From sequence record NC_073086.1: a stretch of DNA of 45,204 nt. One strand, given 5' to 3'. The notes beneath the pieces are model-generated. The model was not told the DNA's origin. It worked only from the letters and a program-made list of their open reading frames with translations, and ran no database searches. Position 1 is the first letter of the stretch, and the number at the start of each line of letters is the position of its first letter. Shown one piece after another: positions 4,552 through 45,204 of this stretch. A program made the translations under genes and the position numbers. Source of the DNA: Escherichia phage vB_EcoS_L-h 1M.

Positions 4552-5337
4552 TTAACGGCGGCGACGTTTACGTGGTGCTTCGTCTTCGTCGTCTTCGTCC
4601 TCATCTTCGTCATCGCGTGGCTTACGACGTTTACGAGGTTTCTCATCTTCGTCGTCTTCGTCGTCATCGCGGCGCTTGGACTTTTTGGACTTGCGCGGCT
4701 TGTCGTCCTCATCATCGTCATCACGACGTTTTGACTTCTTAGCCTTGCGCGGGCTTTCGTCTTCGTCGTCGTTGTCCAGGTCTTCGTCGGAACATGAAGA
4801 CCCGCCACCTCCGAAGGCTTCGCCGTCTTCACGGAATCGCAGACCCAGCAAGCCCGCCCCGAGTCCCTTGCCGTTGGTATTGTTCCACGCCCAAATATCA
4901 AGTGACACGTTGCAATAACAACCGGAGTAGATCTCCTGGCCTTCGATCTCGTCGCCTTCTACGGTCAGACCTTGTTCAGTCTGCTTCTCGCCGAGTGACG
5001 TTTGAATGATAGGCTGTTTGAACGATTTGGCGTTGATATACAACATGCCTTCGAATTCTTCGGTAACTTCATCGCGCTCGTCGCCGTCGCGAACTGCACA
5101 TTCCTTAGAATCCTGGGCGTAGTGGCGGTCCATCCACTTATCGGCATTCTTCTCAGATTTCAGCTTGTCGGTGAGCACTGCACGCGCTGCCGCTTCCACT
5201 TTGTCCACCTGCGGATCTTCTTTATCAAGAAGAATCACGGCACGGTATGCCGGTTTTTGTCCATCCTGTTTAGGGGTATCACGTTCCCAAATTTTCAGGA
5301 AGCATACGCGCACATTTTTCAGGTTGACTTTAGCCAT
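4552..5337 (-). CDS. ssDNA-binding-like protein (DUF2815-type) with alternating acidic/basic C-terminal repeats
   Basis: N-terminus 'MAKVNLKNVRVCF'; start ATG 5335-5337 (rc) with GAGGA RBS; C-terminal (D/E)n-PRK-(K/R)n repeated 4x. Confidence 0.55.
   Translation of the reverse strand: MAKVNLKNVRVCFLKIWERDTPKQDGQKPAYRAVILLDKEDPQVDKVEAAARAVLTDKLKSEKNADKWMDRHYAQDSKECAVRDGDERDEVTEEFEGMLYINAKSFKQPIIQTSLGEKQTEQGLTVEGDEIEGQEIYSGCYCNVSLDIWAWNNTNGKGLGAGLLGLRFREDGEAFGGGGSSCSDEDLDNDDEDESPRKAKKSKRRDDDDEDDKPRKSKKSKRRDDDEDDEDEKPRKRRKPRDDEDEDEDDEDEAPRKRRRR
4560..4800. repeat. degenerate ~60-bp tandem repeats encoding charged tail of SSB-like protein
   Basis: repeated CGTCTTCGTCnTCATC...GCGnGGCTT units; protein level acidic block + PRK + basic block x4. 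Confidence 0.45.
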
Positions 5338-5670: not shown

Positions 5671-7093
5671 TGCTTAAGTCCTCGTCAGTAGCTACAGACC
5701 ACGCAGGGCGCGGGTCGTCGATGGGTGCTAATACCGGTTTAGCGGGTGCGCGCGTGATTTTATCACACAACTTTGCCCACACTTTCGGCTTCTCGTCCTT
5801 CAATACCTTCTCGGCATCAGTAGGGCTGAGTAATGTTTCTTTGTACATCACGTCGCGCTTGATCCGGGCCTTCGTGAAGATCTCAATCACTTCGCTCTCG
5901 TCCGCCCACTTGCGGATTCCTTCCTTACCGGCAACCATCTTGAGGCCCAGCGATTCGCCATCACCCGCCATTACGGCCTTGAACACCGCGGACTCGATAG
6001 CCTTGATGTGCTGGCGCATTGCGTCAAGACCTTCATAAGCCTTGCGNAGTTCCNCCNCGCNCANAGCGCNGGGGGNCGCTTNTTTNTTNCCCCNCTTCNC
6101 NCGNNGNGCCGCTTTGNGGGCTTNGNGGGCCATATTGNGGTCGTGATTGGCGCATTCTTCCTCTGTCGAAATACTCACGTCGTCGCCCAGGTCTTCGTCT
6201 GTTGCCGTTGGTGGGGCCATAGTGTCGATTGCAGCCTTAGCGCGGGCGCTACACTGATCCGCAAATCTGCACCATTGACACGCATCAACGCTCGGTCGGA
6301 AGTCGGCACGGGTGAGTCCCTTTTTGCCGCGGTCGTACGCTTCCAGGGCGGCGATAGCACGCTTGGACGCAAACTTCGCGAATATCTCCAGGGCTTCTAC
6401 CGAAATATCCCACTCCGACGCCCCGCCGCAATACGGCTGGAAGATAACCAGGCGCACGGTCGTAATGTCGTACATAGTTTTCAGCTTGCGCAGCAGGCCC
6501 AGCGCATACAACATAAGCTGTTTGTTTTCTTTCGCCTCGACCTTATGCCGCCCCGTCTTCAGGTCGCCAACAATCAGCATGTACGTGCCGTCGGTCTTCT
6601 TCATGACCATGACCATATCCGCAGTGCCGAACGTCTTAACCCGGTTGCCGTCGATCTCGAAGCCAGAGTGTAGGACGCGGGTAAGATCGGCGCGCATCTC
6701 AAGCTGAACAAACTCCGCCACTTCGAGGAGCGGTCGCCAGTGGTCGATGTATGCGTCGCACTGTTTCACCATGTCGTCGTTGACCAGCACGCCGCCTTTC
6801 GGTGCTTTCGGGTGCGCCTTCACCGGCCCCTTACCTTCGTTCTCGACGTAACACCCTTTGTACGTCTTCGCGGTTATCAGCTTTTCACCGGCGATAATGC
6901 GGTTGAGCACGACTTCAGATACAGTGTGCATACTCGTACCGTTAATCGCCGCTTGCCCGGATTCGTTCGGGATACCTTGTTCTACCACCAGGGCGGCTGG
7001 GCAACCCATCCATTTTTTAGCACCGGATGGGCCGAGTAATGAATGCTCCGTGTTGCTACCGGATTGCGTTTTACGTTTTGGTTTAATCGCCAT
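5663..7093 (-). CDS. PD-(D/E)XK Cas4-like exonuclease (DUF2800-type)
   Basis: 'GTADMVMV...GDLKTGRH' nuclease motifs, C-terminal Cys cluster 'CQWCRFADQC'; N-run 6047-6130 inside. Confidence 0.6.
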   Translation of the reverse strand: MAIKPKRKTQSGSNTEHSLLGPSGAKKWMGCPAALVVEQGIPNESGQAAINGTSMHTVSEVVLNRIIAGEKLITAKTYKGCYVENEGKGPVKAHPKAPKGGVLVNDDMVKQCDAYIDHWRPLLEVAEFVQLEMRADLTRVLHSGFEIDGNRVKTFGTADMVMVMKKTDGTYMLIVGDLKTGRHKVEAKENKQLMLYALGLLRKLKTMYDITTVRLVIFQPYCGGASEWDISVEALEIFAKFASKRAIAALEAYDRGKKGLTRADFRPSVDACQWCRFADQCSARAKAAIDTMAPPTATDEDLGDDVSISTEEECANHDXNMAXXAXKAXXXXKXXXKXAXPXAXXXXEXRKAYEGLDAMRQHIKAIESAVFKAVMAGDGESLGLKMVAGKEGIRKWADESEVIEIFTKARIKRDVMYKETLLSPTDAEKVLKDEKPKVWAKLCDKITRAPAKPVLAPIDDPRPAWSVATDEDLSNE

Positions 7094-7711: not shown

Positions 7712-8221
7712 TTAGTCTTCCAGTTCGAAATAGGTTTCGACGATTTCTTTCAGATCTTTGTGGAAATCTTCCACGTCGTCATCTTCCAGCTTGGCGATTG
7801 ATTTGATCTCGAACGCTTCCAGCAGGTCGTCAAATTCGTCGTTCGCATCGTCATCATCACCGCCTGCGATAATCGCGGCATACTGTTTGATTTCGTCGCG
7901 CATCTCTGCCAGCGGGTCGGCATCTTTCTTACCTTTGCCTTTCGCTGGTGCTTTTTTACCCTTCGCCGGTTTTTCGTCTTCGGCTTCATCGTCGTCATCT
8001 TCTACGACTTCTTTTTTGGCCTTACCTTTCGCCGTGGCTTTTTTACCTTTCGCCGGTGCTTCGTCTTCAGCGTCGTCATCTTCTACGACTTCTTTTTTGG
8101 CCTTAGCTGGCTTTTTATCTTCCTGCTTACCAACGGCAGCGCCCACGGTTTCATAATGTTTTGCGATGATTTCCAGTGCTACTACGCCGCGAGTGATCAG
8201 GTTTACGATTTGCTCAAACAT
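7712..8221 (-). CDS. highly acidic, lysine-rich repeat protein
   Basis: start at ATG 8219-8221 (rc) with GGAGA RBS; 'KPAKGKK...EVVEDDDDEAEDE' repeats from ~80-bp tandem DNA repeat. Confidence 0.45.
   Translation of the reverse strand: MFEQIVNLITRGVVALEIIAKHYETVGAAVGKQEDKKPAKAKKEVVEDDDAEDEAPAKGKKATAKGKAKKEVVEDDDDEAEDEKPAKGKKAPAKGKGKKDADPLAEMRDEIKQYAAIIAGGDDDDANDEFDDLLEAFEIKSIAKLEDDDVEDFHKDLKEIVETYFELED
7925..8110. repeat. tandem ~80-bp repeat inside acidic protein gene
   Basis: units beginning CGTCGTCATCTTCTACGACTTCTTTTTTGGCCTTA at 7991 and 8071. Confidence 0.5.
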
Positions 8222-8446
8222 GGTGTATCTCCGATTGGTTAAGTTTAGGTGTCGACCATTAACTTCGTCGGTGGCCTTAACATAGTGCCCGGTTGCGCGT
8301 TCTCCCTTTCGGGTAGTGGACCGGGTTATATAATCACGGTTGGGAATCCTGACACTTCGATCCGGCCCCTGCGTTGCCCCTCTCCAGTTTGCTTCCTGCA
8401 TCCTGTCGACGAGGTGAATGATAGATTGGTTGCAGATGGGTGTCAA

Positions 8447-8480
8447 CAACTAATTTAAAAAAAAAGCGCCGAGGCAAAAT
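8447..8480 (-). terminator. hairpin with 9-nt A/T tract (terminator-like, minus orientation)
   Basis: A9 then GCGCCG...CGGCGC stem with 13-nt loop; lies in divergent control region. Confidence 0.3.
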
Positions 8481-8561
8481 GCACCGGCGCTAACCAATAA
8501 GAGACAATGAGACGGGAATTATTATTACACGCGTGCGCGACCGTTTCAATATCCAAAGGAT

Positions 8562-8590
8562 TTGACACCGTGCAGTTTTGGGTGTAGTTT
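8562..8590 (+). promoter_or_regulatory. sigma70-like early rightward promoter
   Basis: TTGACA (8562-8567) - 17 bp - TAGTTT (8585-8590), ~30 bp upstream of ATG 8622. Confidence 0.5.
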
Positions 8591-8621
8591 CGTTGGTCAT
8601 TAACCAACAGGAGACTGAATT

Positions 8622-8951
8622 ATGAATATCAAAGAAGCAATTGAAGTGTTATCTAATGCAATCCGCGGCGAAGCGGGTAAATCCTGGTATTACACAAANG
8701 NGGNGGATACTCTGTTATTTGAAGTGTCCAGATTATCGCGTGCTGAGAAGGAGCTTACCGCGAAGCTGGAACTACTCAATGGTACGGCAGCCAGCAAGCT
8801 GCAAAAGCACAATGAAGAAATGGAAGAANACAAAAAGCAGGTTATCCGTTTGCGCGACGAAGGGAAATCATGGGCGATGATTGCAGAGCTAACCGGAATT
8901 AATCAGAGCACCGTGCGATCCTGGGTACGCAATAATAAAACCTCTAAGTAA
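8622..8951 (+). CDS. HTH DNA-binding regulator
   Basis: C-terminal HTH 'SWAMIAELTGINQSTVRSWVRN'; first gene after TTGACA-N17-TAGTTT promoter. Confidence 0.6.
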   Translation: MNIKEAIEVLSNAIRGEAGKSWYYTXXXDTLLFEVSRLSRAEKELTAKLELLNGTAASKLQKHNEEMEEXKKQVIRLRDEGKSWAMIAELTGINQSTVRSWVRNNKTSK

Positions 8952-8961
8952 GGCAACGGCA

Positions 8962-11226
8962 ATGAGCTTAATTAAATTCGCAGTAACACGACCCGCTAAA
9001 AAAGGNGAAAAAGCCAGGGCGGAAAACTTCCAGATGACTACCGATGAGTTTTTCGAATTTATCAACGATGCGAAAGAAATCTCCTCGGTGCATATCAACA
9101 AGACGGAAGATAAAGCGGAGTATGCGCGCCGCAAGCGTAAGGCCGATGGCATTGTGGCTTATACCAGTGATGGGCTGCGCCGCAAGACCAGTGCCGTGGA
9201 TCGCTCGATCCTGTTCTTCGATATTGACCGTACCGACACCCGCACCTTGCGCCGCTGCCGTAAGGCGTTCATCGACGCGGGTCTTGAACACGTATTTCAC
9301 ACCACCACCGGCGACCGCCACCCGCTGAAGGGCGGCACGCGTTGCGCCCGTTTCCTGGTGCTAACGGATAAGCCCGTACCGGCGGAAGACCTGGGCCGCG
9401 TACAGTATGCACTATTACACCAACTCGGCCTGTCAGATGTGGACTTCGATGATTGCACGAAAGACACAAACCGCCTTATGTACCTGCCTCACCAGCAATC
9501 GGTTGTTAAGTGTCACTACGGCAAACGTGCCCGCGTCCGTCGTCTGATTCGCCTGGCGGATAAGCTGGGAGTGGAAAAAGAGGAAGTACGCCGCGAATTA
9601 ACCCAGGGCGATGACGGCGTGGCGGACGGCATTCTGGATTGGTGCTTCCAGGCAGGATTCGAACCGCTGTCGTCCGGTCGTGGTTATGAAGTGCCGTGCC
9701 CGAACGAACACCTGCACAGTGGTGAAGGGTCCACCGCTATCATGGTCAAGGATGGCGAGATCCGTTTCAAGTGTATGCACACTGGCAACGAGTGTTGCTC
9801 GGAACTGAACAGACACCAGCACCTGGCGCTACGTCTTATCGGGATACCGGACCACCTGAACGTCGAACCACACAACATGTCTCGTAAGCAAATCGCCGCC
9901 ATTCTCCCCGGACTGGACGACGAGGAAGTGGAATCGTGCTATGCGCATATAGTTGATGCGGTCGGTGACGGCGACGAGTACGGCGTATGTACCGACGCGG
10001 ACCTGGATAACGAACCGGTCGCACTGTTCAGTAAGCACGACCCGATCATCGAGGGGTTGATTAACTTCAAATCGACCTGGTATATGGCTGGCGAATCGAA
10101 CATCGGTAAATCGTTCTACGTGCTGGGCCAAATGGGTGCGGTTGCCGCGGGGATTCCGTTCGGAGGTGCGAAGGTCGTCCAGTCTCATTGCTTCTATTTC
10201 GACGCGGAAGGTGGTGAAGCCTCCAACCAGCGTAAGGAAGCATTGCAGATCAAATATGAGCACGACCTGGACAAGCTGCACATTATCGATCTGCAATCAC
10301 GCGGCTGGGATATCACCAGCAAATCCGGCTTGCGTGAAGTTATCAGCTTCATCAACCGCACCGCTAACGGCGAACCGGTTGGCCTGGTGGCCTTCGACTC
10401 CCTCAACCAGACTGTTGCGTTGCGGTCCGCCGATGCTAAACCGTTCGACGAGAACAACGCCAGCGATATGGGTGAAGTGGTCAAAGCGCNGAAGGCCATT
10501 GNGGAAAANACCGGNGGNNGNGNTGGNGTCANCCNCCNCCCGGNGAAGGGNGCAAACGGCAGCAGANCCCCCCNCGGGNCCGGCGCGCNGCATGGTGCTG
10601 TTGATTCTGCGTTCTTCCTTGAGCAACCGGACGACAACCAGCCGGGCCAGTTGAACCTGTATCACGAAAAGGCACGTAACGGCATCAAGCAAGCGCCGCG
10701 CGGCTTCGTCCTGCTCAAGTGCAAGGTTAAGGTGGATCTCCGCAAGTCCGAAGCGTTCGAAGCCCACCAGTCCACCAGCACCGGGCCGGACTTTGGCGAC
10801 GTCGTTGCCGGTTGGGACGTCAAGCCAATTGCCTCCACGCCACGCGACGAGACTCTTTACCTCGTACCGGTCGCCCTGGCACCGTTCGCTATTGAGCAGG
10901 CGAAGGCCGCGGGCAAAGCAGCCGTTAAGGAAGAAAACGCCGCAGGACCGCGCAACGAGAAAGAGAAAGTGCTTTATGCGGCACTGGAAAAACTGATGGA
11001 AGATAACCCGGACCATACCGGATTCAGTAAATCGGCAATTGTCCGCCAGGCTGGGCTTGCGAAAGGGGGCACATCGACGAAGGCAATAGACGATATGGTG
11101 GAGCGCGGCGTGCTAGGTTTTTATACAGATCCGCACACTGGGGCCATCTATGGGTCGTCGAATATCGTCATCAAAACAAATATACCCATCACGCTTTCGG
11201 CGACCGATGATGATTTAAAAGATTAA
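8962..11226 (+). CDS. DNA primase/helicase (primase-like N-terminus, zinc-binding region, P-loop NTPase)
   Basis: 754 aa; Walker A 'GESNIGKS'; Cys/His cluster 'CPNEHLHSGEG...CMHTGNECC'; N-run 10490-10590. Confidence 0.65.
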   Translation: MSLIKFAVTRPAKKXEKARAENFQMTTDEFFEFINDAKEISSVHINKTEDKAEYARRKRKADGIVAYTSDGLRRKTSAVDRSILFFDIDRTDTRTLRRCRKAFIDAGLEHVFHTTTGDRHPLKGGTRCARFLVLTDKPVPAEDLGRVQYALLHQLGLSDVDFDDCTKDTNRLMYLPHQQSVVKCHYGKRARVRRLIRLADKLGVEKEEVRRELTQGDDGVADGILDWCFQAGFEPLSSGRGYEVPCPNEHLHSGEGSTAIMVKDGEIRFKCMHTGNECCSELNRHQHLALRLIGIPDHLNVEPHNMSRKQIAAILPGLDDEEVESCYAHIVDAVGDGDEYGVCTDADLDNEPVALFSKHDPIIEGLINFKSTWYMAGESNIGKSFYVLGQMGAVAAGIPFGGAKVVQSHCFYFDAEGGEASNQRKEALQIKYEHDLDKLHIIDLQSRGWDITSKSGLREVISFINRTANGEPVGLVAFDSLNQTVALRSADAKPFDENNASDMGEVVKAXKAIXEXTXXXXXVXXXPXKXANGSRXPXGXGAXHGAVDSAFFLEQPDDNQPGQLNLYHEKARNGIKQAPRGFVLLKCKVKVDLRKSEAFEAHQSTSTGPDFGDVVAGWDVKPIASTPRDETLYLVPVALAPFAIEQAKAAGKAAVKEENAAGPRNEKEKVLYAALEKLMEDNPDHTGFSKSAIVRQAGLAKGGTSTKAIDDMVERGVLGFYTDPHTGAIYGSSNIVIKTNIPITLSATDDDLKD

Positions 11227-11330
11227 ATTTTGCGCGCATTGGTTGCCATTTTGAGTGTTTTTAGCTGGTCGCATTGGTTGCCGTGTGGTGTAAATATAGT
11301 GAATAGTTATGCAATAAAACTGCATAAAGT

Positions 11331-11489
11331 AAGCGGGACAAAAAGCGGGACAGACCAGGGGCGGGACAAAGCGGGACAGCACCCCTGTCCCACCCCGGAT
11401 GACGCGGCCTGGCGGGGAGCGGGACAGGCGGGACAAACCCCAGTCTTTCAGACTAGACGGGGGTCAGTTGGCCCCCTCGTCTGAGACTG
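11331..11489 (+). repeat. composite element copy A: GCGGGACA iteron array plus GC-rich stem-loop
   Basis: 6 direct + 1 inverted GGGACA(G/A) units within 11331-11428; hairpin region 11441-11489. Confidence 0.7.
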
Positions 11490-11648
11490 CATAAAATCCG
11501 GGATTGCATAATACACGGCAGCATATTGGAAATCGCGGTCGTCGCTGAACTAGGCAACCAATGCGAGTTGCAGAATGGTGGGTGGGGAATGCAGTATGCA
11601 GTTACAGCAGATAGCGATCAACTTTTTCATGCGCATGATTAATATTGG

Positions 11649-11685
11649 TTGCATTCGTGCCAGCACCCTGCTAGATTGGTTGCAC
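11649..11685 (+). promoter_or_regulatory. promoter with ATTGGTTGCA operator-like repeats
   Basis: TTGCAT - 17 bp - TAGATT (11672-11677), followed by GGTTGCAC; motif also at 11644-11653. Confidence 0.5.
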
Positions 11686-11705
11686 ACCAACAAGAGGACT
11701 GAACA

Positions 11706-16600: not shown

Positions 16601-16670
16601 CCCCCTTAGATGGCAGGGCCGTCTCCTATGTTGCCGATGGTCGGCGCATATGCACAAAAGGGCTTATATC

Positions 16671-17222
16671 ATGGCAGAAATCAAAGTTAAGGGCCGTCGC
16701 GCTAAACTGGACGGACGAGTAGCAGTTACCCCGCGCCGTAAACCAGGCGAGCAAACAGAACATACCAATCTCGGGCCGGAGATCGAATACGGCAAGCGCC
16801 GCAGAGGTGGCAAATGTGGACGCCCTACCGACTACCGTTCCGTGTATTGTGACCAACTTCGACGCTATTTCGCCGATGCCGTAGCCTGGCAAGTTAACTA
16901 CTCCGACAAGGGTGCTGCGCAAGTAATTCCCCGCAACATGATGCCTACCTTTGGTCGCTTCGCCGCAAAGATTGGCGTAGGCGTCGCATGCCTTTATCGC
17001 TGGGCGCGCGCACATGAGGAGTTCGCCGAGGCAATGGCTGACGCTATGGAGCTACAGAAAACCTTCCTGATGGAAGCTGGCGGCGTGACCATCGCGGCGG
17101 GCTTCGCTACCTTCCTGCTTAAAGCCAACCACGGCGTCCGGGACGATGTACCGCTGGATGACGACGAAGATGATAACGGCGACGTCGTTGTGGAACCTAC
17201 CGGCAAAGGTCAGGGTGATTAA
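16671..17222 (+). CDS. terminase small subunit (putative)
   Basis: ATG 16671 with AAAGGG RBS; HTH-like 'FGRFAAKIGVGVACLYRWARAHEEF'; acidic C-terminus; directly upstream of large terminase. Confidence 0.5.
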   Translation: MAEIKVKGRRAKLDGRVAVTPRRKPGEQTEHTNLGPEIEYGKRRRGGKCGRPTDYRSVYCDQLRRYFADAVAWQVNYSDKGAAQVIPRNMMPTFGRFAAKIGVGVACLYRWARAHEEFAEAMADAMELQKTFLMEAGGVTIAAGFATFLLKANHGVRDDVPLDDDEDDNGDVVVEPTGKGQGD

Positions 17223-22793: not shown

Positions 22794-22828
22794 TTTGTCT
22801 TCCTTCATATCTCTGTTGGTGTGCAACC

Positions 22829-22858
22829 AATATAGTGCAACCAATACGCGGATTGCAA
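22829..22858 (-). promoter_or_regulatory. leftward promoter of opposite-strand cassette
   Basis: minus strand TTGCAA - 18 bp - TATATT then GGTTGCACACCAACAGAG leader; ATTGGTTGCAC twice. Confidence 0.45.
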
Positions 22859-22865
22859 GCGAATT

Positions 22866-22893
22866 TTGCGATTATTTTTATCGCTGATAATAT
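22866..22893 (+). promoter_or_regulatory. promoter candidate for scaffold/capsid operon
   Basis: TTGCGA - 16 bp - TAATAT, ~55 bp upstream of scaffold ATG. Confidence 0.3.
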
Positions 22894-25860: not shown

Positions 25861-26454
25861 ATGGCTGAAGTCTACTCATTCGCCGCCACTATTGCTACGT
25901 GGGTGGATAAGACGAAGGAGAACAACGATAAGGCGGTGCGGGCGTACGGGATGCAAATACTCGGACGCCTTATTGAGATCTCCCCGGTGGGCGACCCTCG
26001 CCGGTGGAAGATTAACAAGGATTATGCAATGGCCCGCCAGCACGCGAACAAGGTGAACGCCGCACAGCGCCGCAAGAATGGCGGCAAACTGAAGCGCGGG
26101 CAGAAGAAGCACGCCAGTGTGCTCATCTCATTCAAGACTAAAAACGGCAACGTCACGTTCCGACAGCGTGGCTGGGCTGCGAAGAATTACACCGGCGGAC
26201 GCTTCCGGGGAAACTGGCAGGTTACGTTCGACAGCCCGGCTGTCGGCGCTATTGACCGCGTGGACAAGGCCGGAACGGCAACATTAGCCGCGGGGCGTGA
26301 AGTGCTGGCGCATTACGATTCCGGGGAATACGGGTCGATCTGGTTTACTAACAATGTGCCGTATGCGCAGCGACTTGAGTATGGCTGGAGTAAACAAGCG
26401 CCTGCGGGGATTGTTCGCGTCGTAGCGGCAGAAATTAATTCGAAGGTGAAATAA
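25861..26454 (+). CDS. neck/tail completion protein (HK97 gp10-like, putative)
   Basis: 197 aa; 'NNVPYAQRLEYGW' resembles HK97 gp10-family motif. Confidence 0.4.
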   Translation: MAEVYSFAATIATWVDKTKENNDKAVRAYGMQILGRLIEISPVGDPRRWKINKDYAMARQHANKVNAAQRRKNGGKLKRGQKKHASVLISFKTKNGNVTFRQRGWAAKNYTGGRFRGNWQVTFDSPAVGAIDRVDKAGTATLAAGREVLAHYDSGEYGSIWFTNNVPYAQRLEYGWSKQAPAGIVRVVAAEINSKVK

Positions 26455-26876
26455 TGAGCAATACTCTAATCCGCAAGGCGCTTAACAGCGTTGTAGAAGA
26501 ATTATCGGTAAGCCTGAGCACTAACCAGCGCCCGATAAAGGTTAACTGGGAGAACGTGAGCGGCGACCNCNCCAACGGCAGNGGTGTCTACCTGGAACCG
26601 TACCTGCTTCCGGCCCCGACCCAGTTTGTGGGCTTCCAGCAGAAGGGCCGGGTCTATGCTGGCGTTTATCAGGTTGCCGTCGTGTTCCCAGCGGGAACTG
26701 GAACACAGTACGCTAGCGAACTGGCGGACGCTATCGCGACGTCGGATAAGTGGCTGGAGGTAAAGATTTCCGGCGCTGCATTCCAGCTTCAGGACGCGCC
26801 CTATACCAGTTCAGTGGTTGAGGATGTTGATCGTGCCCGCATCGTGGTCACAGTCCCCTACACCTGTTGCGCCTGA
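26454..26876 (+). CDS. major tail tube protein (putative; could instead be tail terminator)
   Basis: 140 aa directly upstream of terminator, chaperone and tape measure. Confidence 0.4.
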   Translation: MSNTLIRKALNSVVEELSVSLSTNQRPIKVNWENVSGDXXNGXGVYLEPYLLPAPTQFVGFQQKGRVYAGVYQVAVVFPAGTGTQYASELADAIATSDKWLEVKISGAAFQLQDAPYTSSVVEDVDRARIVVTVPYTCCA

Positions 26877-26967
26877 TTTGGCGCAATTCTATGCGTGCGG
26901 TATCATTAATCCGTATATCTAAACAGGAGCGTTCATTATGGGTCGCTTAAGTAGCGAGGGGTCTTAT

Positions 26968-26992
26968 GGGGCCAGCACGGCCCCTTTTTTAT
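26968..26992 (+). terminator. rho-independent terminator between tail tube candidate and chaperone
   Basis: stem GGGGCC / GGCCCC, loop AGCAC, then T6-7. Confidence 0.6.
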
Positions 26993-27006
26993 TGGAGAAT
27001 ACCACA

Positions 27007-27683
27007 ATGGCTAAAGCACCACTCTTCACACTTGACCCTAAGCCAACCTTTAAGCTGCCGATTGAGATCCCGCGCCCTGGTGAGAACGAACCCGGCAANA
27101 TGACTTTTACCGTCCGCCACCGCCCGATCGACGAGTTTTCGCAGACCATGCAGGACACTGAACGAAAGCTATCGGAATATGACGACAATGACCCGGACGG
27201 CTTTAACGTTATGGTCGAGGCCATCATGCACGTCGCAGAAGGCTGGAATCTGCCGGACGAATTTAACGCGGAGAACGTCCGCCGCCTGGTGGTCAACTAT
27301 CCACGCGCGTTCGGTGTGTTCCACACGTCGTACTATCTCGAACTGATGGGGTTGNGNGAAAAAAACNAATTGAGGNGGCGCGNCGCTTTTNTGGCCCNCC
27401 NCCNCCCTCCGAAGATTGACCCGCAAGTTTATGGGGTGCGGCCCCCGAAGATGTTTGTCCGCCTGTTGCACTATGGCCCGACAACGCGAAGATACTCGCA
27501 GTCTTCACAGATTGCTCCACGCAATGGCGCACCGGATTTGGTGGCGCATACGGCATCGACTACGGCGTGCTGGAGTGGTTATTTAAGATGCACGGTATCG
27601 AAAACGAGCAGCGCGCGTTTAAAGATATCAAGCCGATGGAACGAATCGCGCTTGATGAGATGACGCAGCAGAACCCAGCATAG
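27007..27683 (+). CDS. tail assembly chaperone with C-terminal domain in -1 frame (G/GT-like)
   Basis: N-domain in frame of ATG 27007; slippery heptamer A_AAA_AAC 27360-27366; protein-like C-domain in -1 frame 27420-27683; N-run 27355-27411 between. Confidence 0.5.
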
Positions 27684-27687
27684 TGAA

Positions 27688-28000
27688 GCGGGACAGGCGT
27701 GGCGTCCCGTTTTGTCCCGCCTCTGCAAAACTATGTACCTACTCAATTCCACTGCATTAACTCAAAACGGGACAGGCGGGACGTCCCCCTTTGTCCCGCC
27801 CCTCAAAAGTGAATGGCTATGCGGTTTTTCTGCATTAAACAAACGGGACAGAAAGCGGGACAGAATGAGGCGGGACAAAGCGGGACAGCACCCCTGTCCC
27901 AGTCAGTGCTGCCGCTGGTTTTTGCCGATCGGGACAGGCGGGACAAAGCCCAGTCTTTCANACNANACGGGGGNCAACGGCCCCCCTCGTCTGAGACTGA
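27688..28000 (+). repeat. composite element copy B: expanded GCGGGACA array plus the same stem-loop
   Basis: at least 10 direct and 5 inverted GGGAC units; shares exact 31-mer with copy A; hairpin has N calls. Confidence 0.7.
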
Positions 28001-28067
28001 ATAAGGTTTGTTTTAAAATCGCTGATACAATATCCATCGGCAACTGCATAAAAAAGGGGACTGCATT

Positions 28068-28409
28068 ATGGCAGATCAAGCGGCAGGCATCATGATGAAG
28101 GCTGATGTTGCACAAATCAGAACGGCAAATACTGTGCTGGACTCCTTCGCACAGAAATCCGAGAACACAGAAAACAAGATGAAGAAATTAAACGACACCC
28201 TCGGCAAATCCAAAAAGGTGACGAGTGACGCCGCGGGCGGAATGGAGAAGCTCGCGACTGAATCGCAGCGCGCAGCCGATGGCATGACAAAACAGGAGCG
28301 ACTTGCCAACAGGTTAGGCATGTCGACCAAAAACCTGGGCTTTGCCTCGCGTAACGCCGCATTCCAGTTACAGGATATCGCAGTTACGCTTGAGATGGGG
28401 ATGCCTTGA
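28068..28409 (+). pseudogene. tape measure N-terminal duplicate copy ending in in-frame TGA
   Basis: 113 codons, ~90% identical to 28794 onward; TGA at 28407-28409 where copy 2 has GTG; same frame as downstream ORF. Confidence 0.4.
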
Positions 28410-29519
28410 CACCGCGTCATGCTTCAGCAGTTACCGCAGCTAACTGGGGCGTTCGGCGGACTGGGTAACACGCTGCGTTTTGTTGCGGGCTTCCTCGGCC
28501 CAGTAGGGGTCGGCCTTGCCGCCGTAACGGCAACGTTAGGCGTGGGCGTGGCAATTACGTCCCNCNNGGAGAACNANANCCCCCCGCTTAACAAGACGCT
28601 GGCACTTTCCGGTAACATTTCCGGCCTGACGGCAAACCAGATCCTGGTGCTATCTGAGAACGCCGAGCGCATGGGCGGGTCGTTCCGCAAGACGCGTGAC
28701 ACAATCCAGGCGCTGGCGGCGGCGGGTGTGAAAGCGGGTGGTGACTTCGGCGCACTGGCGAAAGTGGTGAATGACTTTGCGAAGGTGTCCAGCATGGCAG
28801 ATCAGGCAGCGGGCATCACGCTCAAGGCGGACGTCGCGCAAATTAAAACGGCTAATACTGTGCTGGACACATTCGCGCAGAAATCCGAGAACACAGAACA
28901 GAAAGTAAAGAAATTAAACGACACACTCGGCAAGTCGAAAAAGGTTACTGGCGACGCCGCGGGCGGAATGGAAAAGTTAGCGACTGAATCGCAGCGCGCC
29001 GCCGACGGCATGACGAAACAGGAGCGACTAGCCAGCCGATTAGGCATGTCGACCAAAAACCTGGGATTTGCTTCACGGAACGCGGCATTCCAGTTACAGG
29101 ATATTGCGGTAACGCTTGAGATGGGTATGCCGGTGCACCGCGTCATGCTTCAGCAGTTACCACAGCTAACCGGCGCATTCGGCGGATTAGGTAACACGCT
29201 GCGTTATGTTGCGGGCTTCCTCGGCCCAGTAGGGATCGGACTTGCGGCAGTAACGGCGACATTAGGCGTGGGCGTGGCAATCACGTCACGGGCAGAGAAC
29301 CAGGTAGCCGCGCTTAATAAGACGCTGGCGCTGTCCGGTAATATTTCAGGCCTCACAGCTAACCAGATCCTTGTGCTGTCCGAGAACGCTGAGCGCATGG
29401 GCGGGTCATTTCGCAAGACGCGTGACACAATCCAGGCGCTGGCGGCGGCGGGTGTGAAAGCGGGTGGTGACTTCGGCGCATTGGCTAAGGTAGTTAATGA
29501 CTTTGCGAAGGTGTCCAGC
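28068..29519 (+). repeat. 726-bp in-frame tandem duplication at 5' end of tape measure gene
   Basis: 28068-28793 vs 28794-29519, both begin ATGGCAGATCA; ~90% identical, mostly synonymous. Confidence 0.75.
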
Positions 29520-31436: not shown

Positions 31437-31473
31437 GGCGCGATCGGCGCGGGCCATCACTATTTTCACTACT
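31437..31473 (+). repeat. ~37-bp direct repeat, copy 1 (copy 2 at 32161-32199)
   Basis: GGCGCGATCGGCGCGGG...CACTATTTTCACTACT directly after tape measure stop; second copy inside L-like gene. Confidence 0.5.
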
Positions 31474-37652: not shown

Positions 37653-37678
37653 CCGCCATCCCCGTTACGTTGTACTGA
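37653..37678. repeat. 26-bp exact direct repeat, copy 1 (copy 2 at 38379-38404)
   Basis: CCGCCATCCCCGTTACGTTGTACTGA between J stop and RBP-like stop; identical copy inside RBP-like gene. Confidence 0.7.
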
Positions 37679-38868: not shown

Positions 38869-38948
38869 AGACAGACACCGGCGTTATTCGCGATGAGGCC
38901 AATGCCGCGAAGGCTGAAGCGCAAGCCGCCAGCACTGCCGCGCTTGGA
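38869..38948 (+). repeat. 80-bp direct repeat, copy 1 (copy 2 at 39595-39674, 1 mismatch)
   Basis: fills the whole intergenic gap between lipoprotein and fiber start codons; duplicates an internal fiber segment. Confidence 0.75.
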
Positions 38949-40589
38949 ATGGCAGCGGGTACACTATCCGTAACGAATAACAGCAAGGCGGTTGTCGGGG
39001 TAGGCACGACGTTTACCACGTTTACCGCTGGCGACTTCTTAACTCTGGTGGTGGGGCAAGTGCCTTACACTGTTGCTATCGCGTCCGTCGAAAGCGACAC
39101 CGCGATTACGCTTGTGCTTCCGTTCGACGGCCCCACGGCAACCGGCCTCGCGTGGGATGGCGTTAAGCGCGATACCATGTCGCTGGCAACGATGGGCGTA
39201 ACAGTACAGGCACAGAAAGCGTTGCGCTTGATGATCGCTGACGAAAACAACTGGCGTGCAATCTTCGGAGACGAAGAAGAAGTCACGGTAACGCTGCCGA
39301 ACGGGCAAGTTATGCAAGGTATGTCCTGGGGCTACCTGTCACAATTGATGAATCAGATCGACCCCGTTGAAATGCGCAACCTGCAACAACAAGCCGCGGC
39401 ATCTGAAGCAGCAGCGCAAGGATTTCGCAATGAGGCCGAAGGCTTCAAGACTGAGACGGCGGGGATCCGCGACGCCACCAACCAGATTAAGGCGGATACG
39501 CAGGCTATCCACGACGCCACCAATACCATCAAGACGCAGACGGCCCAGATTAAGACTGACACGCAGGCCATCAAGGGCCAGACGGACCAGATTAAGACAG
39601 ACACCGGCGTTATTCGCGATGAGGCCAATGCCGGGAAGGCTGAAGCGCAAGCCGCCAGCACTGCCGCGCTTGGATATCGGAACGAGGCCGAACAATTCAA
39701 GAATGAGATTGACCCGTCTAACTTTCTGGCAAAGGGTGGCAACCTGGCTGGGTTAACTGACTTGCCCGAGTCGCGGGATAACTTGGGTTTAGGAGCGTTG
39801 GCGACTAAAGATTCGGCGGCGCTAAACTCCACAGATACGACCGGTATTCTGCCCATAGATAAGCGCGGTTTAGGCGCTGGTACCATCCCTGGCGCACGGG
39901 AGACGATGCATATTTATGGTCATGACGCTACGTTCGGGACCATAAATAATATCCTCACATACTTCAACAATATTGCGGGTAACGGCCGACTCTTCTCGTT
40001 TCGAGATGGTGCCGTTGACGCCACGAACACCTACAAATTCGGCTCAGCAATACTGTTTCGCACAGCCGACACCTACGGACTGTTAAGTGTTGACCACAAC
40101 AGCGGAAACGTTAGAGCATCCGGTGGTACAGTTTCTGGTGGGATCGCGGCCACAGCATACATCAACAACCTGTGGGGTACGCGTAACACCACCGTAGACG
40201 GTAACGGGTTTATTAAAACCGCGTCGCCCATCGTCAAGATCTTCAGTGACGGTGCCGCGGAGACTAACGACGAGGCCGAAGGCGTTACGCTGACTCGCAT
40301 ATCTGCGGGGGTGTATGTTGTGGAGGGGTGTCTAGGCCTCAACTCAGACCCATCCTGGGGCGGGCCTGACGGCGGGATTGAGATTCCGACGGACGTGAAC
40401 AAGCAGCCTCGTTTATGGGTTGATTATAAAGTGCGCGCTGACGGCTCTGTGGAGGTACGCACATACCACCGAACACACCCACACGCTCCAGCATTCGCAA
40501 GAAATGAGATAGAAGGTGTGGCGGAAGGGGACCCGGTTGATATACCGCGTGGCACGTTCATATCTGTTCGGGTTAATATGCCTGAGTAA
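38949..40589 (+). CDS. side tail fiber protein
   Basis: 546 aa; fiber-like N-terminus; repeats 'FRNEAEGFKTETAGIRDATNQIKADTQAI...'. Confidence 0.7.
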   Translation: MAAGTLSVTNNSKAVVGVGTTFTTFTAGDFLTLVVGQVPYTVAIASVESDTAITLVLPFDGPTATGLAWDGVKRDTMSLATMGVTVQAQKALRLMIADENNWRAIFGDEEEVTVTLPNGQVMQGMSWGYLSQLMNQIDPVEMRNLQQQAAASEAAAQGFRNEAEGFKTETAGIRDATNQIKADTQAIHDATNTIKTQTAQIKTDTQAIKGQTDQIKTDTGVIRDEANAGKAEAQAASTAALGYRNEAEQFKNEIDPSNFLAKGGNLAGLTDLPESRDNLGLGALATKDSAALNSTDTTGILPIDKRGLGAGTIPGARETMHIYGHDATFGTINNILTYFNNIAGNGRLFSFRDGAVDATNTYKFGSAILFRTADTYGLLSVDHNSGNVRASGGTVSGGIAATAYINNLWGTRNTTVDGNGFIKTASPIVKIFSDGAAETNDEAEGVTLTRISAGVYVVEGCLGLNSDPSWGGPDGGIEIPTDVNKQPRLWVDYKVRADGSVEVRTYHRTHPHAPAFARNEIEGVAEGDPVDIPRGTFISVRVNMPE

Positions 40590-40621
40590 CTTCGCCGGTG
40601 AGCACGACCATAGGCTGGACG

Positions 40622-41197
40622 TTAATTTGAGTTTTCCCAGTCCATTTTGCGCCGCACAAGCGGGCTTTCGTAGTATTCCTTACCTTCCACTTCCACTAAA
40701 TGCCAGTCATTCACAATCACGTATGGCTCTGCTATATCCTCAATCACGCCGTGCGCGCTATGCTGCCCGAACGACACGCCAACCAGAATAACACCGGCAA
40801 CCCGACGGGAAAGATACTCGCGGGCACAACGGGCCTCAACCAGACCGCGACGGATGCCGCTGGTGGCTTTGACCTCATATGTCCAGACGGCATCAATCAT
40901 GTGCTCTTTGTAGTCAGGACCGGATTTTACCTTGCGCTTGCCGACCATGATAATATCGCCTCGGTCGATAGTGTTAGCGCTAAACAGGCCGGTACGCATT
41001 AGCAAACCTTGCGGGATACAGCTACGCCCGCCCGCCTGCCCTTCGAGGTACATTCCCGCAAACATCTCACCCAGCACACCGACAAGGCGGCTTTGCTTGC
41101 ACGCGTCAGACTTTAAGCGCCACTGTTCAAATTCGATGCTGGCTAACATTGCCGCCAGGTGGAATTGTTTACCGGTTATTTCATATTCGCCGTACAT
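40622..41197 (-). CDS. hypothetical protein (possible PD-(D/E)XK-like motif)
   Basis: 191 aa; 'DYKEHMIDAVWTYEVK' weakly resembles D...(D/E)xK. Confidence 0.35.
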   Translation of the reverse strand: MYGEYEITGKQFHLAAMLASIEFEQWRLKSDACKQSRLVGVLGEMFAGMYLEGQAGGRSCIPQGLLMRTGLFSANTIDRGDIIMVGKRKVKSGPDYKEHMIDAVWTYEVKATSGIRRGLVEARCAREYLSRRVAGVILVGVSFGQHSAHGVIEDIAEPYVIVNDWHLVEVEGKEYYESPLVRRKMDWENSN

Positions 41198-41730: not shown

Positions 41731-41784
41731 AGTATTACCCTTTTTAGTGAGGGGGCTTTATTGCCCCCGACACGTTTAATATAG

Positions 41785-41806
41785 TGCAACCAACCTATTG
41801 GTTGCA
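41785..41806. promoter_or_regulatory. palindromic operator-like site TGCAACCAA-N3-ATTGGTTGCA
   Basis: inverted half-sites of the recurring motif; overlaps stop codon of 41795..42265. Confidence 0.45.
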
Positions 41807-42265
41807 AGTGAATTTTGCAACGTTTATTGCGTAAATTTTCGGGACCAAATCACCACACGCCCGACGAATTGCCGCGATGTTCTTCTCGCAATCTTCAATG
41901 ATGACCAGTTCCGACACGTCCGCATAGCAGACCATTTTGAACACGGCGCACGCCTTAAACTCTGGCGGCGGGGTGTCGTCCAGCATGTGGCGCATAAACA
42001 ACCGGCCTACCGGGAAGACCTCCAATTGCTCGGCGGTGGTGTCCCAGCATTCTCGCTGCCGGTTGGTCAGATACGCGATCTCGAAGCCTCGCTCTTTGTA
42101 CATGCGCAGCAACGGCAGCATATCCATATTCAGGTCTTCGCGTACGTGCGCCTTGTGCCACTTCGCCCAAAAGGTGGATTTAGTTTTTATACCAGGCACC
42201 AGGTCGGCGCGCGCATCGCTTGAACCGTTAATAACTCCATCCAAATCGCAAATCAGTAATTTCAT
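41795..42265 (-). CDS. HAD-superfamily phosphatase (nucleotidase-like)
   Basis: N-terminal 'MKLLICDLDGVI' HAD motif I. Confidence 0.6.
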   Translation of the reverse strand: MKLLICDLDGVINGSSDARADLVPGIKTKSTFWAKWHKAHVREDLNMDMLPLLRMYKERGFEIAYLTNRQRECWDTTAEQLEVFPVGRLFMRHMLDDTPPPEFKACAVFKMVCYADVSELVIIEDCEKNIAAIRRACGDLVPKIYAINVAKFTCNQ

Positions 42266-43656: not shown

Positions 43657-43684
43657 ATTAAAAAGGGCGTCCAACCGGACACCC
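43657..43684 (-). terminator. rho-independent terminator
   Basis: 8-bp stem with one G-U pair, loop of 4, T-tract on minus strand; 17 nt before RBS of 43398..43640. Confidence 0.5.
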
Positions 43685-44751: not shown

Positions 44752-45204
44752 TTGCGCGCCTTTTTAGCTTTCATGTATTCCATCAAGTCGTCCTGAATAT
44801 CTCGCTTACTGTCGCGACGTTCGGCGACCAGTTCATCCAGTGTCCCGCGCGCCTGGATAATGTAGACGAATACCGGACGAGGGTGTCCGGCTTGCATCTG
44901 GCGAACCGGCCCTATACGCTCCACAATCTGCGAAAAGTGCTCATAGTTCCAGGTGTCTGAGAAGATAGCAAGGTGGTGCCCCCCATCCTGCAGGTTAAGT
45001 CCGTGACCCGCTGACGCTGGGTGTGCAAACATGATGGGGATCTCGCCCCTGTTCCACGCTTCCATATCCTTATTTCCTTGCTTACCCTTACCCATCGCTA
45101 CGCCGTGCGGGAATTTCTTCTTGAGACGCGCCAGATCATGCTTGTACTGGTATGCGACGAGCAACGGCGCGCCGTTCAACTCCTCCACGATACTTTCCAG
45201 CGCG
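44748..45204 (-). CDS. SNF2/DEAD-like helicase, C-terminal part (5' part at 1..1083)
   Basis: translation continues that of window start ('...EELNGAPLLVAYQYKHDLARLKKKFPHG' at both ends); open at window end. Confidence 0.7.
   Translation of the reverse strand, partial: ALESIVEELNGAPLLVAYQYKHDLARLKKKFPHGVAMGKGKQGNKDMEAWNRGEIPIMFAHPASAGHGLNLQDGGHHLAIFSDTWNYEHFSQIVERIGPVRQMQAGHPRPVFVYIIQARGTLDELVAERRDSKRDIQDDLMEYMKAKKARK

Follow-up and report, generated by a model that had tools for sequence, protein, structure and literature searches.

In the oriV of plasmid RSF1010, repeats are combined with conserved hairpins (ssiA and ssiB) that are used by the plasmid primase, and the hexameric helicase is of the RepA type, which is AAA_25-like. 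The alpha protein of phage P4 reportedly unites primase, helicase and a C-terminal winged-helix origin-binding domain in one protein, and the short repeats of P4 are said to form two clusters, ori and crr, which lie 4.5 kb apart and contain both orientations, with crr required in cis. The Rep helicases of Staphylococcus aureus pathogenicity islands (SaPIs) use a C-terminal winged helix to read 6-12 repeats of five or six nucleotides, which lie directly behind the rep gene and oppose each other around an AT-rich centre (PMC9371898). Here we analyzed a 45,204-bp stretch of DNA from Escherichia phage vB_EcoS_L-h 1M (NC_073086.1; the whole stretch is hereafter called the window), a Dhillonvirus, that is, an HK578/SO-1-like siphophage of E. 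coli. The window contains two related elements composed of short repeats and a hairpin: copy A follows the helicase-primase gene, and copy B occupies the gap between the tail assembly chaperone and tape measure genes. Copy B is a conserved, selected and genus-specific second copy of the repeat-plus-hairpin module found after the helicase-primase gene, and we lean slightly towards reading it as an expanded duplicate of a repeat-type (iteron) origin from which the phage replicates.

The locus resembles the SaPI Rep/ori system in several respects. The SaPI helicase carries a C-terminal winged helix, fused in SaPI5 to a primase, and such a domain is predicted at the C-terminus of the helicase-primase here. 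Repeats lie directly downstream of the open reading frame (ORF) in the case of copy A, which has seven GGGAC units, whereas copy B is not adjacent but 16.5 kb downstream. The repeat differs by initiator, being CGGGACA, GGGGAGA or GCTGCCAAC after the orthologous helicase-primase genes of three clades. Repeats opposed around AT-rich spacers are seen in copy B, whereas copy A has a single inverted unit and a GC-rich spacer. In contrast, the helicases belong to other AAA+ clades without sequence homology, the core here being RepA-like (AAA_25, superfamily 4); the SaPI is a satellite in Staphylococcus aureus, whereas this is a virulent phage of a Gram-negative host; and here a large conserved hairpin follows the repeats and a second, expanded array is located 16.5 kb away in the tail operon. 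With P4, the phage shares two separate repeat clusters containing both orientations and, by prediction, the three-part protein architecture. However, P4 employs a superfamily 3 (SF3)/D5-type helicase and the octamer TGTTCACC instead of an AAA_25 core and a CGGGACA repeat, and its clusters are much closer together than the two copies here, one of which stands between structural genes; the present system is therefore an analogue rather than a member of the P4 type. The RSF1010 origin likewise joins repeats with conserved hairpins and a RepA-type helicase, but it relies on three proteins (RepC, RepB' and RepA) and 20-mer repeats, whereas a single fused protein, 6-7-bp repeats and one hairpin per copy are found here.

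We examined the anatomy of the two copies (Table 1). The gap between the DUF1799 part of the chaperone and the tape measure gene measures 384 bp (27684-28067), an unusually long interval for which the preliminary description of this DNA had given 385 bp. GGGAC occurs 15 times in the gap on the two strands, where 0.38 occurrences are predicted from the rest of the window; the same description had placed at least 15 units within 27688-28000, which holds 14, so that the count applies to the gap as a whole. The longer unit GCGGGAC occurs 19 times in the window, a number reached by no shuffle, and 14 of the 19 fall inside the two loci.

Copies A and B share a core of about 190 bp in which the components follow in the same order: a box (GTGAAT..TATGC..CTGCAT(A/T)AA), four CGGGACA units in direct orientation and an inverted one, a copy-specific spacer of about 30 bp, two further units and a 49-nt imperfect hairpin. 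Pairwise alignment of the loci revealed collinear blocks at 11298-11354/27808-27864 (77% identity) and 11417-11494/27927-28004 (86%), with a constant offset of 16,510 bp. The exact 31-mer GCGGGACAAAGCGGGACAGCACCCCTGTCCC occurs in the window only at 11361 and at 27870 (to 27900), and six of the eight CTGCATWA sites, all of which are on the + strand, lie in the two loci. A second, expanded copy in the same orientation, a common 31-mer and CTGCAT(T/A)AA sub-repeats at both loci had all been proposed in the preliminary description, and the alignment bears them out.

Copy A lies in the gap 11227-11595, with its seven GGGAC units at 11335-11434; its core begins about 70 bp, and its first repeat 109 bp, after the helicase-primase stop codon. 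Its inverted unit is followed by a GC-rich spacer, repeats at 11421 and 11430 and a long imperfect hairpin at 11441-11489, so that the copy comprises six direct units and one inverted unit. Copy B has, in addition, two 44-bp palindromic modules upstream of the core, each consisting of a unit pair facing an inverted-unit pair, and these inverted pairs are arranged around two spacers of 60-67% A+T. For the first of these spacers, the value was obtained in 30-bp windows of its counterpart in MT478993.1 (Escherichia phage vB_EcoS_011D5), and its sequence differs among genomes. The spacer inside the core is kept among B copies and is not the same as that of copy A. On both strands, folding of the copy B hairpin as single-stranded DNA yielded -12 to -14 kcal/mol, with z values between -3.3 and -3.9. 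In alignments of the copies its stems are nearly invariant and its loop is variable; because the stems do not vary, they provide no compensatory evidence for pairing.

Table 1. Features of the two repeat loci and their neighbouring genes (positions in the window)
Feature	Position	Strand	Details
Helicase-primase, 754 aa	8962..11226	+	AAA_25/RepA-like core at aa 357-517; predicted C-terminal winged-helix domain at about aa 666-737; proposed initiator that would bind the GGGACA repeats
Copy A core	11298..11494	+	GTGAATAGTTATGCA / CTGCATAAA box; direct CGGGACA (GGGAC at 11335, 11347, 11363, 11373); inverted unit at 11387
Tail assembly chaperone, 3' part (DUF1799, gpT-like reading frame)	27400..27683	+	TAG at 27681-27683; aligns to MT478993.1 coding sequence 28179-28409
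Palindromic repeat module 1	27686..27729	+	GGGAC at 27690 (+), 27704 and 27714 (-); extra to copy B; direct repeat family D13
AT-rich spacer 1, containing CTGCATTA	27730..27764	+	Candidate DNA-unwinding stretch between opposed repeats
Palindromic repeat module 2	27765..27808	+	GGGAC at 27769, 27778 (+), 27783, 27793 (-); D13, 82% identical to module 1
Copy B core start	27808..27900	+	GTGAATGGCTATGCG / CTGCATTAA box; direct CGGGACA at 27845, 27857, 27872, 27882; inverted unit at 27896
Copy B-specific spacer (CAGTGCTGCCGC...GCCGAT), then two direct repeats	27901..27948	+	Repeats at 27931 and 27940
Long imperfect hairpin, copy B	27951..27999	+	CAGTCT...AGACTG, with G5-6/C5-6 top; four positions are N in the window
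TGATACAAT, extended -10 promoter-like site	28023..28031	+	37 bp upstream of the tape measure start codon
Tape measure start after the element	28068..28793	+	Diverged 726-bp duplicate of 28794-29519; repeat D1, 86% identity, spacing 726
Duplex DNA GCGGGACA			Candidate target of the helicase-primase C-terminal domain

To compare the copies among genomes, we considered the variants that they carry. The alternative forms GGGACAGGCGGGACAA and GGGACAGCGGGACAGC, as well as loop alleles, were seen at both A and B. Both copies of the divergent phage Ioannina carry GGGACGTCCC..GTCCC together with CCTCCGTCT, whereas in the main clade both carry GGGACAGCACCCCTGTCCC together with CCTCGTCT. Because alleles are common to the two copies, these comparisons indicate recombination between A and B, by which the copies exchange sequence and are homogenised. 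By overall identity, the signal of concerted evolution within genomes was weak (0.772 vs 0.758), and it was visible only in particular shared variants. Copy B very probably binds the same factor as copy A.

Both copies were found in 150-155 of 157 Dhillonvirus records at 80-100% identity, always in the same two places, in agreement with the conserved cis-element proposed earlier. About 150 natural genomes match the junction of chaperone, element and tape measure gene collinearly, with 88-91% identity. An assembly artefact had been named as one way in which the proposal could fail; because the junction is collinear in about 150 independent genomes, the element is not an artefact, and only its context in the window is composite, as described below. 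Ubiquitous host-derived sequence had been named as another, and the element had no match in 5,426 complete E. coli genomes; a search of 72,556 plasmids also returned none. An apparent third copy, suggested by "3 places" in the BLAST tables, was traced to self-hits inside copy B. Among 13 unique B regions, GGGAC/GTCCC columns were 84% invariant compared with 60% for other columns, and the spacers were variable and contained 1-nt indels. The better conservation of the repeat columns, together with these indels, argues that the B region is non-coding and that its units are under selection.

The bare observation is already on record in one GenBank annotation. In Sodalis phage SO-1 (GQ502199.1), repeat_region features mark a region A (11214-11597) before the tape measure gene and a region B (40178-40657) after the helicase/primase, described as mutually similar "direct, inverted and palindromic repeat sequences". 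In both identity and placement, these features correspond to the two elements described here; the record gives them as an annotation note only, which also puts forward a possible function. Our literature search, which covered Dhillonvirus, SO-1 and HK578, turned up no paper analysing the repeats.

We further compared the region downstream of the helicase-primase gene among related phages. Pfam assigned only AAA_25 (RepA-like) to the protein, and a sequence search against PDB returned nothing useful; the C-terminal winged helix is a predicted fold, whose H2-turn-H3 region is clade-specific. A clade whose helicase-primase is 66% identical (contig L275) has CGGGACA units and the hairpin after the gene, as in the Dhillonviruses. 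In Cornellvirus PhiSTP1 (43% identity), seven GGGGAGA units begin 7 bp past the stop codon and are followed by a different, GC-rich hairpin, and in a clade with 44% identity (L276) GCTGCCAAC units and another long hairpin follow the gene. Across these clades, the repeat unit changes with the lineage of the putative initiator and the architecture stays. When the chaperone-tape measure junction was examined in homologous phages, Dhillonviruses were seen to keep the element in the gap; PhiSTP1 has no cluster before its tape measure gene and no second cluster anywhere in its genome. Copy B thus appears to be a Dhillonvirus-specific duplication, since the sister genus has one array only.

Two further sequence features accompany the copies. 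The box GTGAATAGTTATGCA upstream of the repeats (11298-11327 and 27808-27837) is common to Dhillonvirus and Cornellvirus PhiSTP1 (L152, 17030-17065) despite their differing repeats. In Cornellvirus, TTATGCAGA matches the DnaA-box consensus at 8 of 9 positions, and a host factor may bind here. A second motif, ATTGGTTGC(A/C) / GCAACCAAT, is present on both sides of copy A (11236-11292, 11550-11562 and 11640-11692) and absent from copy B. It also occurs at 22814-22869 and 41778-41818, beside TATAGT-type -10 sites of two divergent promoter regions, and is probably a promoter or operator motif of the phage.

To investigate how such arrays are distributed in other phages, IMG/VR was scanned with the pattern GGGACA-N3-6-GGGACA-N3-6-GGGACA. 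The scan matched at least 120 loci, collagen-like coding repeats among them. Outside the Dhillonviruses, at least 62 noncoding-type arrays were found, with 6-15 units per 300 bp in both orientations and a spacing of 9-11 bp. Among the matches listed, at least 27 of these arrays adjoin a primase-helicase homologue that is 21-31% identical in the AAA_25 core. The distance from the 3' end of the helicase gene to the array is mostly -334 to +92 bp, and 1.0-1.9 kb at three loci (L100, L148 and the first L110 ORF). At least five more arrays adjoin DUF927+HTH_56, DUF5906/D5, DnaB-like or AAA_25 helicases, and Toprim+VapE and Prim-Pol+AAA_25 fusions are also represented among the array-linked proteins. 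Arrays at the 3' end of an ORF of at least 300 aa with a Walker A motif were present at 16 or more of the loci among the matches listed, compared with 1.7 expected by random placement. As a control, the composition-matched hexamer GGCAGA gave 10 arrays, one of which had at least eight units, compared with at least 37 such arrays for GGGACA. None of the 10 lay next to a helicase homologue, which rules out that any hexamer yields helicase-adjacent arrays.

The typical GGGACA array has direct units first, then a centre that is palindromic or AT-rich, and inverted units last. Their flanks split roughly by helicase class, with cGGGACA accompanying AAA_25 cores and tGGGACAg accompanying SF3-type cores. 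Arrays at the 3' ends of primase-helicase genes were located at L034, L048, L054, L088, L091, L099, L103, L110, L118, L124, L143 and other loci, on contigs of 45-70% GC, and these genes belong to several unrelated families.

The origin reading is favoured because copy A adjoins the helicase-primase gene, the C-terminus of the encoded protein is a predicted winged helix, the repeats change with the helicase lineage, and GGGACA arrays are associated with primase-helicase genes. We infer from these patterns the binding protein, the activity as an origin, and what the hairpin and copy B contribute; that the factor common to A and B is the helicase-primase, and its function replication, seems to us somewhat better than an even chance. 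Under this reading, the CGGGACA repeats would be binding sites for the C-terminal winged helix of the phage's own helicase-primase, and copy A, directly after the gene as in the origins of self-loading initiator helicases such as SaPI Rep, would be the ancestral array. In an ancestor of the Dhillonviruses, the core of box, repeats and hairpin would have been duplicated into the chaperone-tape measure junction, where copy B would have acquired its two palindromic modules flanking AT-rich spacers. Helicase-primase assembled on the opposed repeats might then melt these spacers and load itself, with the conserved hairpin serving as a single-strand priming or loading signal. Copy B could be either a second origin, switched on when the tail operon is transcribed late in infection, or a partner that acts in cis on copy A in the way that crr complements ori in P4.

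A broader extension of this reading is more tentative, and we regard it as possible rather than probable. GGGACA arrays may constitute a widespread and so far undescribed class of phage origin, used by RepA-like, VapE/D5-like and DUF927 primase-helicases in two flank subtypes. The Dhillonviruses would then be the first virulent phages with two homogenised copies, the copy in the tail operon being either an origin activated by late transcription or a crr-like partner that loops to copy A via the helicase-primase.

Several observations weigh against the origin reading. The structure model of the helicase-primase has moderate overall confidence (mean pLDDT, the predicted local distance difference test score, of 63), and its winged-helix fold is generic. 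Copy A has one inverted repeat only and no clear AT-rich centre. The C-terminal tails of array-linked helicases are of at least four types, between which hhalign detected no homology; a common C-terminal domain was therefore rejected as the cause of the common hexamer, whose binder may be a different protein. Within the orthologous series, a switch of repeat type is accompanied by a switch of family in the small helix-turn-helix (HTH) gene that precedes the helicase. The single array of PhiSTP1 implies that a second copy is unnecessary for the replication of such phages. The cumulative GC skew has its minimum at 8403, in a divergent promoter region, and not at A or B. Our literature search found no binding or replication data for any Dhillonvirus, and no direct precedent was found for a second origin inside a late structural operon. 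With regard to the skew, the minima of cumulative GC and AT skew lie together at 8403-8431, within the divergent early promoter region (8222-8621) at the switch of gene orientation, which would be the classical skew-based origin call; because skew mirrors gene orientation, it is not decisive as an origin locator.

The main rival is a role at operon boundaries, which we consider unlikely but by no means negligible. The repeats would bind a phage factor such as the 109-aa HTH protein encoded at 8622-8951, the hairpin would act as a barrier or terminator, and a downstream promoter would restart transcription, with A and B as boundaries timing the lysis/packaging and the tape measure/tail-tip genes. 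Both copies do lie at operon-like boundaries with promoter-like sites downstream (TGATACAAT for copy B and, for copy A, TTGCAT-17-TAGATT some 160 bp beyond the hairpin), copy A is situated between replication and late genes, HNH and terminase genes follow the array in several unrelated contigs, and the family switch of the small HTH gene fits such a role. However, a homologue of the 109-aa protein was found near none of the other GGGACA arrays (at least 62), where helicase genes are near, and this protein is thus ruled out as the common binder. Most helicase-linked arrays are no more than about 100 bp from the stop codon of the helicase gene or overlap this codon, and they are 1-6 kb from terminase genes. 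Neither hairpin is followed by a T-run (GAGACTGAATAAGG / GAGACTGCATAAAA follow the stem) and no terminator was called on the + strand, which speaks against an intrinsic terminator; moreover, the motif that recurs at promoter regions of the phage is a different one, ATTGGTTGC. A structured RNA is less probable still. In that case, the inverted repeats and hairpin would act in cis in processing, stability or antitermination, like the put sites of HK022, or would sequester a protein via GGA-containing units. As RNA, the 401-nt region does fold far beyond shuffled sequences (z -8.5), the copies have the same orientation inside rightward transcription units, and hairpin stems are invariant with a variable loop. 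Against this, the invariant stems offer no compensatory change for pairing, the short hairpin GGGACAG-CACCC-CTGTCCC is lost in several genomes, and repeats in both orientations with perfect DNA palindromes (GGGACGTCCC) are typical of protein-binding DNA. The arrays of other phages are laid out as direct and then inverted repeats, as in DNA origins, and the whole window had no match in Rfam 15 at the gathering score.

That the copies are a small mobile element or a functionless fossil duplication, perhaps a recombination hotspot between direct repeats, is very improbable in our judgement. Two direct copies of about 190 bp with about 80% identity, 16.5 kb apart, alleles that point to recombination, and the lack of a second copy in the sister genus would all agree with it. 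On the other hand, about 155 of 157 records have the element at exactly two loci, whose positions are fixed, the repeat columns are better conserved than the spacers, and neither terminal inverted repeats nor target duplications were found. Retention of the two copies argues for selection, because recombination between direct repeats would delete essential genes; together with the absence of matches from E. coli genomes and plasmids, the fixed positions contradict the mobile element that the preliminary description had entertained. We give least credence to a role in packaging, in which the small terminase subunit would recognise the copies as a pac or cos site, despite arrays directly upstream of the small terminase gene in contig L008 and terminase genes within 1.5-3 kb after the array in several contigs. 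Dhillonviruses package by a headful mechanism (PMC9022532; PMC13348001), the sole reported end (ATCTTAAGGG in EE09) maps to window position 43682, and the small terminase gene (16650-17222) is 5.2 kb away from copy A, which precedes it, and 11 kb away from copy B, which follows it. Among the functions listed in the preliminary description, the second origin is thus the one favoured by the evidence, and pac, RNA processing and antitermination are not supported. Resemblances to PhoB, CsrA, DnaA, sigma-54 and T7-primase sites were judged by eye and dropped as weak.

The promoter-like site TGATACAAT downstream of copy B is putatively the promoter of the tape measure gene. It does not appear in the consensus promoter scan because that scan requires a -35 element. 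The sequence GCTGATACAAT is unchanged across the 13 unique Dhillonvirus B regions, and since TGATACAAT is invariant in these 13 genomes, the tape measure and tail-tip genes may own a promoter that decouples them from the chaperone genes.

For most virulent coliphages no replication origin is known, and this applies also to the Dhillonviruses, which are present in many phage-therapy and BASEL-type collections. If the origin reading is correct, the origins of phages with a fused helicase-primase could be read from sequence by looking for an array of short repeats where the gene ends, and the winged-helix tail and CGGGACA would form a testable protein-DNA pair. A virulent phage whose origin exists in two copies that can exchange sequence, with one copy embedded among structural genes of an operon, would also raise questions about how late transcription, tail gene dosage and replication are coupled. 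The occurrence of the same hexamer beside unrelated helicase families in dozens of uncultivated phages merits follow-up. Should the reading be wrong, the element would still be a strictly conserved, genus-wide non-coding module that needs explanation.

The window itself is a composite and not a faithful genome at 26877-28793 and in several intergenic gaps. It has the length and the coding sequence (CDS) coordinates of MT478993.1, but its sequence differs: compared by position, the two are 93% identical, as a mosaic in which tracts of 100% and of approximately 90% identity keep perfect register. The window lacks the major tail protein gene of 726 bp (MT478993.1 26938-27663), and from there to 28793 the window carries related sequence shifted left by 726 bp. 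The duplicated 5' end of the tape measure gene is an artefact of this construction. The gap 28410-28793 in MT478993.1 corresponds to the copy B gap, window positions 27688-28000 being 28414-28726 of that record, and the flanks of the gap, the DUF1799 chaperone part and the tape measure start, are the same as in natural relatives. The chaperone part is annotated as a DUF1799 domain protein in JLBYU60. Downstream annotated CDSs are identical in register, and the intergenic stretches 31437-31473, 37653-37678, 38869-38948 and 40590-40621 hold sequence that belongs 726 bp farther downstream. Upstream, roughly every second CDS is an approximately 90% variant without indels, and the copy A stretch is 100% identical to MT478993.1. 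The window contains 78 N's, which are clustered at variable sites (6047-6138, 10490-10589, 27355-27404, 27961-27974 and 28564-28579). The best natural match of 26400-28793 is phage CEC_Kaz_2018 (96.4%), in which the tail tube gene is present.

The ends of the window, 1-115 and 45090-45204, are direct repeats with 91% identity. They look like the assembly overlap of a circularly permuted genome, and their imperfection is in line with the composite nature of the window. Finally, GACGAAGA-type repeat families were observed inside two early minus-strand genes (4559-4785 and 7767-8108), where they code for low-complexity segments that are acidic (Asp/Glu-rich); an Enc34-type single-stranded DNA-binding protein contains one of these segments.

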